A stretch of 64,000 nucleotides of DNA from Planctomycetaceae bacterium (GTDB lineage Bacteria; Planctomycetota; Planctomycetia; Planctomycetales; Planctomycetaceae), in NCBI GenBank assembly GCA_035687365.1, contig DASRXU010000226.1, positions 4,911 to 68,910 of the forward strand, written 5' to 3'. The notes under the pieces are model-generated. The model did not search any database and was not told the DNA's origin. It saw only the letters and a list, made by a program, of their open reading frames with translations. Position 1 is the first letter of the stretch, and each line of letters begins with the position of its first letter. The translations under genes and the position numbers were made by a program. Positions 1 through 14,459 of the stretch are shown piece by piece.

Positions 1-1124
1 ACCCGGCCGATTTCGTGGTCGGTATAAGCCGCGTAGGCGGCGAAGACTTCCGCCTGATGGGCGAAGAGCTTCTTATTCTCCGCGGGGAGCGAATCCCACT
101 TCGGCAGGCTATCCGGCCAGGGAGTGAGCTGAGTATTCGCAGGGATCACACCCAAGCGTTTCTGATTGGCGAAGATTTGCTCGCGCATCTCGTTCCAGCC
201 CATGTCGAACTTGCCTTTGAACTTCTCGATCCACTCTTTGGTGGGCTGGTGCGGCGAGTGGGTCCCCCCGGGAACGTAATAGAGAAAGAACGGCTTGTCG
301 GGCGCGGAGGAGTTTAAGTCGTTCATGTAGTGGATGGCGTCATCCGCTAGATCGGTAGTCAGGTTGTAATTTGGCTTCCCAATCCACGGAAAGACCTGCG
401 TTGTGTTCTGGAAGAGATAGGGCGTCCACTGATCGGTCTCGCCCCCCATGAAGCCGTAGAAGTACTCAAAGCCCATCCCGACAGGCCATTGATCGAAGGG
501 CCCGGCCGTACTGTATTGATAAGTGGGAGTGTTGTGATTCTTGCCGAACCACGAGGTGGCAAAGCCGTTCTGCTTGAGGATCGTGCCGACAGTGGCATTG
601 TCCACGCCGATGACGGAGTCATAACCGGGGTAGCCGGTGGACATCTCTCCGATGACGCCAAAGCCGACGGAGTGATGGTTGCGGCCTGTAATCAAAGCCG
701 CGCGGGTGGGCGAGCAGAGGGCCGTGGAGTGGAACTGAGTATAGCGCAGCCCCGCCTTGGCAACTCGGTCCATCGTGGGCGTGGGCACCACACCGCCAAA
801 CGTGCCCGACACGCCGTAGCCCTGATCGTCGGTCATGATCAAGAGCACGTTGGGCGCGCCTTTGGGCGGGACGATCTTCGGCGGCCAATAGGGCTTGGAA
901 TCCTTGGCGTTGAGGTTGATGACACCGCCGAATTTCGAAGCGGGGTTGGGAACGTACTTTCCATCAATCGTGGTCGTGCCGCCGGGAGAACCCAGCGCGC
1001 CCGTCGTGGGCGCGGTCCCCTCCTCAGCCTTTGAGGTTGGCGCAAAGTTGCCGGTCGCGGCGATATAGCCGAGCAACGTTCCCAAGGCGATCGTGGTCAG
1101 CCTCGAAAGGCTTGAGGTCTTCAT
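1..1124 (-). CDS. Arylsulfatase (S1 sulfatase family), N-terminal ~374 codons; the 3' end lies beyond the left edge
   Basis: Absent from the ORF track because it runs off the edge. Reverse complement from ATG at 1122-1124 reads MKTSSLSRLTTIALGTLLGYIAATG...PNVLLIMTDDQGYGVSGTFGG...RYTQFHSTALCSPTRAALITGRNHH. The canonical C-x-P-x-R formylglycine motif sits at 702-716. N-terminus is signal-peptide-like. Confidence 0.85.
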   Translation of the reverse strand, partial: MKTSSLSRLTTIALGTLLGYIAATGNFAPTSKAEEGTAPTTGALGSPGGTTTIDGKYVPNPASKFGGVINLNAKDSKPYWPPKIVPPKGAPNVLLIMTDDQGYGVSGTFGGVVPTPTMDRVAKAGLRYTQFHSTALCSPTRAALITGRNHHSVGFGVIGEMSTGYPGYDSVIGVDNATVGTILKQNGFATSWFGKNHNTPTYQYSTAGPFDQWPVGMGFEYFYGFMGGETDQWTPYLFQNTTQVFPWIGKPNYNLTTDLADDAIHYMNDLNSSAPDKPFFLYYVPGGTHSPHQPTKEWIEKFKGKFDMGWNEMREQIFANQKRLGVIPANTQLTPWPDSLPKWDSLPAENKKLFAHQAEVFAAYAAYTDHEIGR

Positions 1125-1199
1125 ACTGCATTCTCCTTTGTCGATCGTCGTCATTCTTGAGCTGTTCCGCGAAAGGATTCGTTCGGCGCTGCCCCAGGG

Positions 1200-1574
1200 T
1201 CATTTGAACTTCGGACGAGCTGTCCCCCACAGGAGGATGGCACCAACCACGAGCAGCCAGAACGGAATCACGCCCAGGCCAGGAATGGCCTCCAAAACAA
1301 GCCCCGGCAAAAGCAGCCACTGCCAGCCAAGCACGGCAAACAGCAGTATGGCCGTGAGCACGTCCGTGGCCCAGACAGCCGGTGGAGCAAACACCACAAA
1401 TCCGCACACCGCGTCCGAGATGGCCGCGATGCCCAGCGCCAGGAGAATCTGTCGCTTTGAGAAACGCAGAGCGCTTCCTCGGCCGGTCTTTGCACTCGAC
1501 ACGTCAGAATTCTCGACACCCGGGGCGGGGAGCTTCGTTCCGTGTTGGCCGTTGTCGGTCAAGGCATCTGACAT
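1200..1574 (-). CDS. Small integral membrane protein, function unknown
   Basis: 124-aa ORF. Hydrophilic N-terminus followed by hydrophobic stretches (ILLALGIAAISDAVCGFVVFAPPAVWATDVLTAILLFAVLGWQWLLLPGLVL...FWLLVVGAILLW). Co-directional with neighbours at short spacing. Confidence 0.5.
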   Translation of the reverse strand: MSDALTDNGQHGTKLPAPGVENSDVSSAKTGRGSALRFSKRQILLALGIAAISDAVCGFVVFAPPAVWATDVLTAILLFAVLGWQWLLLPGLVLEAIPGLGVIPFWLLVVGAILLWGTARPKFK

Positions 1575-1667
1575 GCTCGTCCCGATCCGTTTTGCGATCC
1601 GCCCCTTCCGCCGACCAAATTCCGTATGGTCGGCAGACAGGGGATCGATGCGTCGCTTACTCGTCGA

Positions 1668-12129: not shown

Positions 12130-13161
12130 CTACTTCTCGAACGGGAACACGCGCTTCCAGTCGGTCTTCATGTGGATCACGAACCAGCCCTTCGCCTGGG
12201 CCTCGTCGTAGAGCGACTGCGGGAAGGTGCCGACCTTGCTGTTGGGCAAACCGTCGGCCGGTCCGTACGCGTATTCGCGCTCGGCGTCGTCGTGCAGCAC
12301 GAGCATCATCAGGCGAGCGCCGGCGCCCGCTCCCGTGTACTCCAACATCTGACGATCGCCCGAGGAGTTGCCGAATGCCGCGTGCGGGCGGCGACCGATC
12401 ACCAGGTGGATCGCTTCGGGCTTCCCGGCGTTGTTGTCATTAATCGCGAGCTTCGGCTCTTTAATGAGCACCGGCTCGCCGTTCTTGGCGTAGATGTATT
12501 TCGTCTCGCCGGCGCTCCCGATCACCTGTTCTGGCGGGATGCCGTACGTCTTTTCGGCGAACACGCGAACGAAGTCCTGGCCGCTTCCGGTCACGATGTA
12601 CGTCTTGAAGCCGTTGGCCCGAAAGTAACGCAACAGTTCGAGCATCGGCTGATACGCAAGTTCGGTATAGGGGCGTTTGAAGCGCGGATGACGGGCCGTT
12701 TCCAGCCAGTGCGCGACCTCGAGATCGAAGTCTTTGACCGACATCCCGGAAAGAGTGGCCTCGATAAGTTTGCCCAGTTCGTGCCAGCCCAGCTTGAATA
12801 TCGCTTCGTGATTCCCAGAGAGCGCTGTCTTGAACGGCTCGACATCCTTGAGGTGCGGTTTGTGTTTGACGAGGGCCTTCACGCGGTCGAGGCAGTAGAC
12901 CACCTGCGTGTACATCGGATGCTCGACCCACAAGGTGCCGTCCATGTCGAACGTGGCAATCCGCTGTTCGGGCGGGACGAACTTCGCGCTCCCCTTGTCG
13001 GTCGTCTCATGAACGAAAGCGACGATTGCGCTCTTCCTCGGTCCGTCGTTCCACGAGGGCAGCGGATCGCCCGGCGCCGGCTGCGCTAGCGCGGGGCGGA
13101 CCAGGGAGAGCAACGTGAAGATCGCGAGTGCGGCCAATACTCGTCCGAATCGAGTCAACAT
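12130..13161 (-). CDS. Secreted HAD-superfamily hydrolase (phosphatase-like)
   Basis: Signal peptide MLTRFGRVLAALAIFTLLSLVRPALA. HAD motif I FDMDGTLW, motif II-like IVTGSG, and distal GNSSGD. Confidence 0.8.
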   Translation of the reverse strand: MLTRFGRVLAALAIFTLLSLVRPALAQPAPGDPLPSWNDGPRKSAIVAFVHETTDKGSAKFVPPEQRIATFDMDGTLWVEHPMYTQVVYCLDRVKALVKHKPHLKDVEPFKTALSGNHEAIFKLGWHELGKLIEATLSGMSVKDFDLEVAHWLETARHPRFKRPYTELAYQPMLELLRYFRANGFKTYIVTGSGQDFVRVFAEKTYGIPPEQVIGSAGETKYIYAKNGEPVLIKEPKLAINDNNAGKPEAIHLVIGRRPHAAFGNSSGDRQMLEYTGAGAGARLMMLVLHDDAEREYAYGPADGLPNSKVGTFPQSLYDEAQAKGWFVIHMKTDWKRVFPFEK

Positions 13162-13199
13162 TCCTAGATTTCCCCAATCTCTGATCGTGTCGGGTCGCC

Positions 13200-14366
13200 C
13201 TACTGCGTGCTCTTCTCGCTCGGGTCAGCCGATCGCGCGCAGCGGAAACCAATGTGCGACATGCCCGTGTCGGGCGTGCAACCGTGCCGCGCGCTGGGCC
13301 GATAGCGGCTGCAGTAGGAGTCGTTGCAGAGGAAGGAGCCGCCCTTTTGAACTCGCAACGGACTGAAGGGCTGCCGCGGGTCGAAACTCTTTTCCGGTCC
13401 TTGCGGATTGAGAGTGACCTTTTGCGTGGCTCGCTGACGGTAAAGGTCGACCTGATACCAGTCGCCGCACCACTGCCAGACATTGCCCGACATGTCGTAG
13501 AGGCCGTAACCGTTGGGGGGAAATGCTCGAACCGGGCTGGGGCCGACGTATCCATCTTTGCCCGTGTTCTTGGTCGGAAAATCGCCCTGCCAGATATTGG
13601 CGTGGATGATGTTGGTGTCGCTGGGCGTGTCGTCACCCCACACGTAAGGCTTGTTGTCGAGGCCGCCGCGGGCGGCGAATTCCCACTCGGCCTCGGTCGG
13701 CAATCGCTTGCCGGCCCACGTCGCGTAGGCAACGGCGTCATCCCACGAGACATGCACGACCGGATGATTTTCCCGGCCATCGATGCTGCTTGCAGGACCT
13801 TCCGGGTGCCGCCAGTTTGCACCCGACGTCCACGTCCACCATTGCGAAAAGTCCCGCAGATCCTTGGGCGGTTTTGCCGTCGGATGAAACACGAGCGAAC
13901 CCGGCACCAGTTTCTCCGGAGGCGGCGGCGGAGTGCCAGGCGGGCTCTGGCGAAGGATCTCGGCGACGTCGACGGGCTTCTCGGCCGTCGTGACGTAGTT
14001 CGTGGCCTCGACGAACGCGCGGAATTGCGCGTTGGTGACATCGGTTTCGTCGATCCAGAAGGGGGCGACGCGCACGCGGTGGGCGGGTTTTTCTTCGGCC
14101 CAGCCGATTTCCGAATCAGTCCCCATGGTGAATTCGCCACCGGGAATCCAGACCATCCCTGATGACGCCGACGTAGCCGGCTTGGCTGACGACGAATTGG
14201 AGGGCGGTGACTTACCAAAAAATCGAGGCGCGAAGCTGAAGAGGAAGAACGAGACGACAAACGCAGCGATGCCCAGAGCGACAACGCGCCCGATTCGCCG
14301 CGCGGGCAGCGCGCCAACGCTGGGCTTTGGTTTGTCGGTCATTTTGGTTTGGGCTTTGGGATTCAT
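13200..14366 (-). CDS. Formylglycine-generating enzyme family protein (SUMF1-type), N-terminally membrane anchored
   Basis: [103 protein letters not shown] (active-site Cys pair). TM segment [20 protein letters not shown]. Start at MNPKAQ (14364-14366) preferred; 14414 is possible. Confidence 0.9.
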
Positions 14367-14459
14367 CGCGAATGTCTGATTCCAGTGCGAGGCACTGCTG
14401 AGCAAACTCAGCAATCTTGTGACTGGTGAGCAAGCTCAGCAGTGGCACACGGAGGCGCT

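Follow-up and report, generated by a model that had tools for sequence, protein, structure and literature searches.

Conserved linkage of formylglycine sulfatases with exported HAD and 2H phosphoesterases in a planctomycete sulfatase island

Formylglycine sulfatases are known to be encoded beside their own maturation enzyme in several bacterial clusters, such as Klebsiella atsBA, the mycobacterial formylglycine-generating enzyme (FGE) gene beside atsA, and the sulfatases of polysaccharide utilisation loci that are accompanied by anSME. Here we describe a sulfatase island at positions 1-14414 of a 64,000-nucleotide stretch of DNA from a soil-dwelling Planctomycetaceae bacterium (the whole stretch being called the window), in which four sulfatase genes are likewise accompanied by an FGE gene and, in addition, by genes for two exported phosphoesterases, a HAD hydrolase and a 2H-fold protein. 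To our knowledge the described sulfatase-maturase clusters carry no conserved HAD or 2H partner, and the module represented in the window differs from them in that its HAD link is conserved whereas its FGE link is facultative (15 of 99 HAD-seeded loci). For the two phosphoesterases a described counterpart is E. coli CpdB, a periplasmic 2',3'-cyclic-nucleotide 2'-phosphodiesterase / 3'-nucleotidase. CpdB combines in one periplasmic protein the opening of a cyclic phosphodiester with the subsequent removal of the phosphate, and would in this respect be functionally analogous to the HAD-2H pair and to the HAD-2H fusions reported below; it is not linked to sulfatases, however, and has unrelated folds (metallophosphoesterase / 5'-nucleotidase).

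We interpret the locus, with moderate confidence, as a sulfatase island made of several conserved pieces, the core of which is a mobile, self-regulated module of extracytoplasmic ester hydrolases whose enzymes serve one pathway or regulon. On our best reading this core consists of one or more C-T-A/S-G-R sulfatases, an exported HAD protein with predicted phosphomonoesterase activity and, often, an exported 2H protein with predicted phosphodiesterase activity; in the window the membrane-anchored FGE stands at its head, and a dedicated two-component system is encoded opposite it. The enzyme families and sulfatase-maturase clusters are already known, and the conserved sulfatase-HAD(-2H)-sensor-kinase module appears undescribed within the literature searched. 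An earlier note on this DNA had not recognised the combination as a described pathway; this stands for the module, of which we found no description in that literature, but not entirely for its parts, as one member of the HAD family, SMa1682 of S. meliloti, has probably been characterised. The sulfatase, phosphoesterase and FGE genes and the regulatory genes facing them are as follows.

<3-1154, minus strand: sulfA, S1 sulfatase with a canonical C-S-P-T-R motif and an N-terminal signal or anchor (PF00884, E 3.5e-40); its 3' part extends past the left edge of the window
3997-5850, minus strand: sulfB, S1 sulfatase, membrane-anchored or exported, C-T-A-G-R (PF00884, E 7.9e-54; PDB 7aj0, E 2.8e-57)
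7229-9112, minus strand: sulfC, paralogue of sulfB (61% identity), C-T-A-G-R (PF00884)
9242-11182, minus strand: sulfD, paralogue of sulfB (45% identity), C-T-S-G-R (PF00884)
11360-12088, minus strand: exported 2H-fold phosphoesterase with H-x-T/S motifs at His75 and His191 (PF13563, motifs, structural model and atlas)
12130-13161, minus strand: exported HAD-IB hydrolase (PF12710, E 8.6e-12, 46.3 bits against a 27-bit cut-off)
13200-14366, minus strand: FGE with an N-terminal membrane anchor and the segment C-N-D-S-Y-C (PF03781, E 3.6e-90, 302.5 bits)
15387-17630, plus strand: divergent histidine kinase with a periplasmic binding-protein-like sensor, PAS and HisKA_3 (domain scan)
17661-18302, plus strand: NarL/FixJ-type response regulator (PF00072 and PF00196)
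18456-18914, plus strand: receiver-only response regulator (PF00072)

The earlier note had named four sulfatases, an aerobic FGE at 13200-14366 and, between them, exported HAD and 2H phosphoesterases, and each of these assignments was upheld. All four sulfatases match PF00884 (E 3.5e-40 to 7.9e-54; 138.6-183.4 bits against a curated cut-off of 25 bits), proven FGEs are the closest solved relatives of the FGE, and the positions and families of the HAD and 2H proteins were recovered, each with an N-terminal Sec-type signal peptide.

Linkage across genomes

The same note tied the HAD and 2H proteins functionally to the sulfatases, and in related genomes these genes are indeed kept as neighbours; the lack of such neighbourhoods in relatives, which the note would have taken as refuting its idea, was not observed. 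We compared 61 genomes of the same genus, family and class, counting a sulfatase as sulfB-type at E <= 1e-80. A HAD homologue is present in 33 of the 61 and a sulfB-type sulfatase also in 33; 30 genomes carry both, 3 the HAD only, 3 the sulfatase only and 25 neither, and three of the six mismatched genomes are clearly incomplete (genomes G001, 65%; G034, 79%; G006, 87%). The two genes lie no more than 5 kb apart in 24 of the 30 genomes with both, and in most of the other six they fall on separate contigs of fragmented assemblies. Since this linkage holds in a set in which several relatives have more than 100 first-look sulfatase candidates, the HAD gene pairs with one sulfatase subfamily and not with sulfatases generally. 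Among nine loci fetched from eight same-genus genomes, seven have the order FGE-HAD-(2H)-sulfatase.

The association extends well beyond the relatives. A scan with the HAD alignment, taking one genome per species, gave 80 loci spanning Pseudomonadota, Acidobacteriota, Verrucomicrobiota, Chloroflexota, Thermodesulfobacteriota and others, 62 of the loci having at least 2.5 kb on both sides; sulfatase-HAD adjacency is also found in other planctomycete families. A sulfatase of the sulfB/C/D type lies within 3 kb of the HAD gene in 46 of the 62 loci and is directly adjacent and co-directional in 33, and the 2H gene adjoins the HAD gene in 14 of the 80. An independent scan seeded with the 2H protein gave 79 loci, of which 42 have a HAD gene within 500 nt, 33 a sulfatase no farther than 4.5 kb away and 25 both. 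Counting gene order over 175 non-redundant loci (S, sulfatase; H, HAD; T, 2H; F, FGE), we observed at least 18 contiguous co-directional orders: SH (26), TH (16), HT (10), STH (8), HS (7), SHT (6), FHS (5) and further ones such as FHTS and SSSTH, with contiguous sulfatase-HAD-2H triads in 22 loci. In seven loci the HAD and 2H parts form a single open reading frame (ORF) of 524-585 aa (L112, L116, L117, L120, L121, L125 and L130; L and G numbers are our handles for loci and genomes). A linkage that outlasts many rearrangements, combined with gene fusion, is a classical signature of functional coupling. No alternative conserved partner emerged in the 13 HAD loci that have no sulfatase, where the neighbours include an AraC regulator, an RND pump, a CLC channel, TPR proteins and ClpB.

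Planctomycetes are known for their many sulfatase genes, and this abundance would favour a chance juxtaposition of unrelated exported hydrolases. Sulfatase-like loci number only about 15 in the host genome (7.36 Mb in 620 contigs, 92% complete), five being on this contig, and the HAD and 2H types are single-copy there; chance clustering in a sulfatase-rich genome is ruled out by this small number of sulfatase-like loci, and with a linkage kept across phyla, through many gene orders and in fusions, we give chance juxtaposition at large next to no credence. Another sulfatase of the sulfB/C/D subfamily, the fifth on the contig, is encoded 17 kb to the right on the opposite strand (31902-33767, plus strand; 41-43% identity to sulfB).

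The HAD tree has two well-supported deep clades with phyla scrambled within each. The window's genus falls in a supported clade of 44 rows together with Pseudomonadota, Verrucomicrobiota and Gemmataceae, and planctomycetes of its own family fall in the other clade. The closest relatives of sulfB, sulfC and sulfD are each found in other phyla, at up to 86% identity for sulfD against a sulfatase from a deltaproteobacterial metagenome-assembled genome (L052), and 223 plasmid records, for the most part rhizobial megaplasmids, contain HAD homologues. Taken together, the scrambled tree, the cross-phylum sulfatase relatives and the plasmid records indicate that the module has evidently moved horizontally many times. 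In two congeners the HAD match beside a sulfatase comes as two pieces (G003:C1:5530983-5532007 and G004:C1:1533628-1534576), which suggests frameshifted or decaying copies, or assembly errors.

Rhizobial megaplasmids carry the closest counterparts in overall architecture. NapD, a periplasmic nonspecific acid phosphatase, was reportedly cloned from S. meliloti by Deng et al. in 1998 (Arch Microbiol), and we take the S. meliloti acid phosphatase SMa1682 to be NapD, an equivalence that follows annotation and gene order. On S. meliloti pSymA and R. leguminosarum pRle248d, a kinase, a NarL/FixJ regulator and a receiver-only regulator face genes for an arylsulfatase, a HAD protein and a TPR/multihaem protein; the kinase and two regulators facing arylsulfatase-HAD reproduce the architecture of the window. 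The pSymA HAD is 51% identical to that of the window, and the sensor domain of the rhizobial kinase is 32-33% identical to that of the window's kinase (E 1e-54). The rhizobial loci differ in having a single sulfatase (about 35% identical to sulfB and sulfC), with neither an adjacent FGE nor a 2H gene, and in that genes for a multihaem-cytochrome/HEAT/TPR protein and for an outer-membrane protein come after arylsulfatase-HAD. The S. meliloti genes are annotated individually as 'nonspecific acid phosphatase' (SMa1682; PMC12542648), 'arylsulfatase' (SMa1683; PMC2912261), FixJ-like regulator (SMa1686; PMC4560400) and response regulator (SMa1688; PMC11387232), and we found no paper that treats the rhizobial kinase, regulator, arylsulfatase and HAD genes as a unit. 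At a further locus, on Ensifer canadensis pT173d (L131, 5135-11275), an arylsulfatase (70% identical to sulfD) and, next in order, a HAD protein (68%) are followed by two hypothetical proteins and then an alkyl sulfatase, so that a second class of sulfate-ester enzyme joins the module there.

Enzyme families and predicted activities

The closest solved relatives of the FGE are the enzymes of T. curvata, Streptomyces and human, with PDB matches 6s07 (E 2.1e-86), 5nxl, 6muj, 2q17 and 1y1e at 1e-82 to 1e-86, against about 1e-26 for PorK/GldK; scores for the NCBIfam equivalogs EgtB, GldK, SenA and PvdO all fell short of their cut-offs. Both catalytic cysteines are present, and a G-G-S-F-x-C-x4-C-x-R-Y-R segment aligns with T. 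curvata FGE. The anchor is a hydrophobic segment preceded by Lys/Arg, and the predicted site of action of the enzyme follows from this N-in orientation.

In many loci sulfatase-HAD is followed by a protein of roughly 760-1030 aa with HEAT and TPR repeats and sometimes LssY_C, of which the copy in L052 has eight CxxCH haem motifs by our count. No FGE was found within the fetched parts of the loci that have this multihaem/HEAT/TPR protein (L052, L055, L078, L083, L085, L086 and L091; L132, 8038-10314; L214, 8088-10481), and the multihaem protein is missing in turn from loci where an FGE is adjacent. This pattern of exclusion, few as the loci are, fits a multihaem cytochrome acting as an alternative maturation factor. 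We did not find the multihaem cytochrome/TPR gene in the host genome, and the matches in congeners were short, spurious TPR matches.

Sulfatase signatures are intact in the translations, those of sulfB including G-Y-A-T-G-Q-F-G-K-N-H, which follows the pattern G-Y-x-T-x-x-x-G-K-x-H, and I-M-G-D-D and S-T-D-N-G with the D-D and D-N residues of metal binding. SulfA belongs to a different subfamily from sulfB, sulfC and sulfD, each of which has one N-terminal hydrophobic anchor or signal. The third motif position of sulfD is Ser, which falls outside the strict P/A of the maturation consensus C/S-x-P/A-x-R-x4-T-G. By solved structure, the best match of sulfB is PsFucS1 (7aj0, residues 103-543, at the E-value given above), whose motif C-T-S-S-R is likewise without proline at the third position. 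PsFucS1 is a marine fucoidan-oligosaccharide enzyme of 515 aa, whereas the window's enzymes measure 617-646 aa and carry both a Cys-Cys linker and an anchor at the N-terminus. It has been described as the first characterised S1_13 sulfatase, specificity in that subfamily being otherwise unknown (PMC8484680). We regard sulfB, sulfC and sulfD as a putative distinct subfamily that is nearest to S1_13 by best PDB match.

This assignment bears on whether the subfamily are sulfatases at all. Sulfatases of the alkaline-phosphatase superfamily are promiscuous, and formylglycine-dependent phosphonate monoester hydrolases exist. The 'sulfatases' could in principle be formylglycine-dependent phosphodiesterases or phosphonate-monoester hydrolases, a proposal that has the attraction of joining three phosphoesterases in one all-phosphorus chain from diester through monoester to phosphate, and PDB 2vqr does appear among the weak matches. 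The model for PehA, a phosphoric/sulfuric ester hydrolase, scores only 49-55 bits against a 900-bit cut-off, however; the closest structural relatives are bona fide sulfatases, PsFucS1 frees sulfate (PMC8484680), and the alkyl sulfatase at the Ensifer canadensis locus points to sulfate esters. We therefore consider an all-phosphorus chain very unlikely, and continue with the reading of these enzymes as sulfatases.

For the HAD protein, the score against the TIGR01488 subfamily (30.7) does not reach its cut-off of 45, and all four HAD motifs are kept in the homologues: among ten sequences of 44-53% identity, D72, D74, T187, K247 and D269 are invariant and T76 nearly so. The protein matches PDB 4ovy over residues 32-341 (E 1.9e-88), including the N-terminal P-L-P-S-W-N-D and all HAD motifs; that entry is a structural-genomics structure titled 'Haloacid dehalogenase domain protein hydrolase', with no function or paper attached. 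One cluster of the family is auto-named 'NapD-like' in the atlas, and annotation of this kind is what suggests a predicted phosphomonoesterase (NapD-type acid phosphatase) activity.

The 2H protein is a divergent member of its family. It scores 23.6 bits against PF13563 (2_5_RNA_ligase2), below the gathering cut-off of 27 bits, and has no PDB match by sequence. H75-I-S and H191-V-T are conserved in 14 sequences; in a moderate-quality AlphaFold model (predicted local distance difference test, pLDDT, 66.8; predicted template modelling score, pTM, 0.66) they map to strands 76-84 and 191-198. In a Foldseek comparison of this model with the PDB, every one of the first 45 matches is listed as a 2H-type phosphoesterase or a protein of the 2H fold, among them Arabidopsis CPDase 1jh6 (E 8.6e-5, target TM 0.69), YjcG, LigT, Usb1 and AKAP18, and the atlas sets the protein among LigT-like clusters. 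Motifs, Foldseek matches and atlas neighbours thus support an assignment that is weak by Pfam. The atlas also lists both HAD-2H and PAP2-2H fusion clusters, so the 2H domain pairs with two unrelated families of predicted phosphomonoesterases, HAD and PAP2, which supports an order of diesterase followed by monoesterase. In locus L199 (5923-7648) a 2H gene is directly followed by a PAP2 phosphatase gene.

The pairing of the HAD protein with one sulfatase subfamily could also mean that it serves the sulfatase itself, with or without the 2H protein, either in maturation of Ala/Ser-variant motifs or in removal of an inhibitory phospho-adduct or inhibitor. Such a role would agree with the specificity of the pairing and with the unusual C-T-A-G-R motif of most partners, which is carried by 55 of the 98 sulfatase ORFs in the collected loci. 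Set against it are HAD-adjacent sulfatases of the same subfamily with C-T-P-G-R (6 of 27) and C-S-P-T-R (2 of 27), the occurrence of HAD and 2H genes without sulfatases, and the 2H-PAP2 pairing, which fits a catalytic phosphoester pathway. A pairing bound to the Ala-variant motif is ruled out, as Pro-containing motifs are paired too, and we judge a service role highly improbable.

Regulation, layout and expression

The sensor region of the window's divergent kinase (query residues ~3-390) is matched beside the module in at least 12 loci, including L091, L102, L107, L128, L132 and L134, from Gamma- and Betaproteobacteria, Acidobacteriota, Verrucomicrobiota and rhizobia. Against solved structures the sensor gave a marginal match only (6hni, E 0.37). 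NarL-type regulators are the commonest recurrent neighbour of the module (16 loci). The recurrent accessory genes all encode envelope proteins: the multihaem-cytochrome/HEAT/TPR protein, a Phenol_MetA_deg outer-membrane channel, DUF1254/DUF1214, DUF2092 and a PagL-like barrel, with DUF1254/1214 proteins recurring in seven cross-phylum HAD loci.

The remaining features of the block and its right border, all on the minus strand, are these.

1200-1574, minus strand: small membrane protein, 124 aa, without family match; it adjoins sulfA in congener G009 too (73% identity, L033)
1668-2438, minus strand: exported G/S/Y- and RGG-rich low-complexity protein (from the translation)
2533-3486, minus strand: exported NTF2-like (DUF4440 / SgcJ-EcaC) protein (PF14534, E 3.4e-12; TIGR02246, E 1.5e-16)
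3483-3887, minus strand: four-helix membrane protein, 134 aa, without family match (from the translation)
3955-3982, minus strand: terminator-like hairpin after sulfB, 12-bp stem and T tract (-26.9 kcal/mol, z -3.6)
5968-6738, minus strand: bestrophin-like (DUF4239) membrane protein (PF14023, E 5.6e-34)
7190-7216, minus strand: hairpin 13 nt past the sulfC stop, 11-bp stem without T tract, followed by the 490-nt spacer (-25.9 kcal/mol, z -4.2)
14385-14445, minus strand: very stable nested hairpin between the STAS stop and the FGE start (-33.8 kcal/mol, z -5.4)
14493-14861, minus strand: SpoIIAA-like STAS protein, encoded immediately upstream of FGE in the same direction (PF11964, E 4.1e-34)

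ORF listing and translation reproduce the twelve consecutive minus-strand genes that the earlier note had placed at 1-14414, and the ATGA at 3483-3486 is a real overlap between the start of the NTF2-like gene and the stop of the upstream 134-aa membrane protein gene. Other elements of its description needed amendment. Most gaps are short, as claimed (38-177 nt), the exception being a 490-nt spacer (6739-7228) that separates sulfC from the bestrophin-like gene; the hairpin at 7190-7216, taken as the only obvious one, is real and is joined by two more strong ones at 3955-3982 and 14385-14445; and the strand is uniform through the 14-kb block, but the co-directional run goes on beyond both ends. 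The left flank of the window (contig bases 1-4912, L031) carries what remains of sulfA and, downstream of it on the same strand, genes for a DUF308 membrane protein, for a DUF1254/DUF1214 protein and for another NTF2-like DUF4440 protein. In congeners the genes sulfD, 2H, G/S/Y-rich, bestrophin-like and sulfB are rearranged or missing, with G009 retaining nearly the whole block order.

A single operon of all twelve genes is ruled out by the three strong hairpins, the 490-nt spacer and the shuffled synteny of congeners, and the block cannot be kept as one unit. From the hairpins, the gaps and the flanking co-directional genes we propose a multi-unit layout, the likely transcription units being STAS; FGE-HAD-2H-sulfD-sulfC; bestrophin-like-sulfB; TM134-NTF2(-GSY); and TM124-sulfA onwards, where TM134 and TM124 denote the 134-aa and 124-aa membrane proteins and GSY the G/S/Y-rich protein. 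The tight unit is FGE-HAD-2H-sulfD-sulfC. The hairpin at 14385-14445 could be a terminator for the STAS gene, a structure in the 5' leader or an operator for an adjacent regulator; the STAS position upstream of FGE is kept in congeners G007 and G002. Several of the small genes recur elsewhere: the bestrophin-like gene is an accessory neighbour of the module in L033, L034, L062, L072, L102 and L160, the NTF2-like gene is also found near the module in congeners, and the 134-aa membrane protein recurs beside B-type sulfatases in other phyla (L075, 50% identity; L129, 39%; L156).

Soil metatranscriptome contigs match the window at 100% identity over the 2H gene, the 2H-sulfD junction, the 3' end of sulfC and the spacer. 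One of them (11301-11496) crosses the 2H stop into the 2H-sulfD spacer, another (7097-7418) crosses the sulfC stop and the hairpin at 7190-7216, and a third (6744-7039) covers the spacer up to the bestrophin-like start. Almost all of the 490-nt spacer is covered in this way (6744-7418). The contigs would agree with expression of the block, and they hint at some read-through past the hairpin or at a long 5' leader.

Interpretation of the module

If the module works as its families predict, the FGE would oxidise the cysteine of the sulfatase motif to formylglycine and the sulfatases would strip sulfate esters in the periplasm; the 2H enzyme would open cyclic or other phosphodiesters to monoesters, from which the HAD enzyme would free phosphate. 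The binding-protein-like periplasmic domain of the kinase may sense a substrate or product and turn the module on, and the enzymes would act together on a shared class of imported organic esters.

Several observations weigh against so unified a function. About a quarter of the HAD loci and about 40% of the 2H loci have no sulfatase nearby, so that each of the two proteins can function without one. The loci were picked by query similarity and many are copies from whole-module transfers, so that their counts are not independent. Neither Pho or Cys regulon genes nor transporters that would point to a nutrient were found among the recurrent neighbours of the loci. The RNA contigs have a depth of only about 3-4 and may include DNA carry-over. 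SMa1682 is probably the rhizobial HAD gene, as judged from locus-tag order and mapping. The sole characterised S1_13 member is a weak sulfatase of marine fucoidan oligosaccharides, with little bearing on soil substrates (PMC8484680). Enzyme activities, their order, topology and regulation are predicted from sequence throughout.

Within this interpretation, as a special case and not as a competitor to it, the three enzyme types may act in sequence on one and the same molecule, an ester of both sulfate and (cyclic) phosphate, as the earlier note suggested, for instance a sugar, nucleoside or polyol derivative. The specificity of the HAD protein for one sulfatase subfamily, even amid more than 100 candidates, would be unexpected of a generic scavenging phosphatase, and the tight spacing, the 22 contiguous triads and a dedicated sensor kinase in place of global Pho or Cys regulators agree with a shared substrate. 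HAD and 2H genes occur without a sulfatase too, however, the sequences give no report of the substrate, and we can name no natural extracellular substrate class of this type for soil bacteria; we regard action on a single molecule as possible, with the balance tipped against it. We are more doubtful still of its strictest form, in which sulfatase, HAD and 2H proteins constitute an obligate three-step periplasmic pathway for unrecognised compounds bearing both sulfate and (cyclic) phosphate esters, with the kinase domain as their specific sensor. If this were true, the module would represent a widespread coupled route for the mineralisation of organic sulfur and phosphorus in soils.

For the ester-hydrolase module as we interpret it, the significance lies first in the sulfatases. 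S1_13-like enzymes are very common in soil and peat bacteria and almost uncharacterised, and the HAD phosphatase, 2H phosphodiesterase and sensor kinase that travel with them, with the activities predicted here, would be the first concrete handles on their role. The linkage further suggests a genetic coupling between the mineralisation of organic sulfate esters and that of phosphate esters. Because the module is also present on megaplasmids of genetically tractable rhizobia (S. meliloti SMa1682-SMa1688 and R. leguminosarum), it could be tested directly there, without recourse to the uncultured planctomycete.

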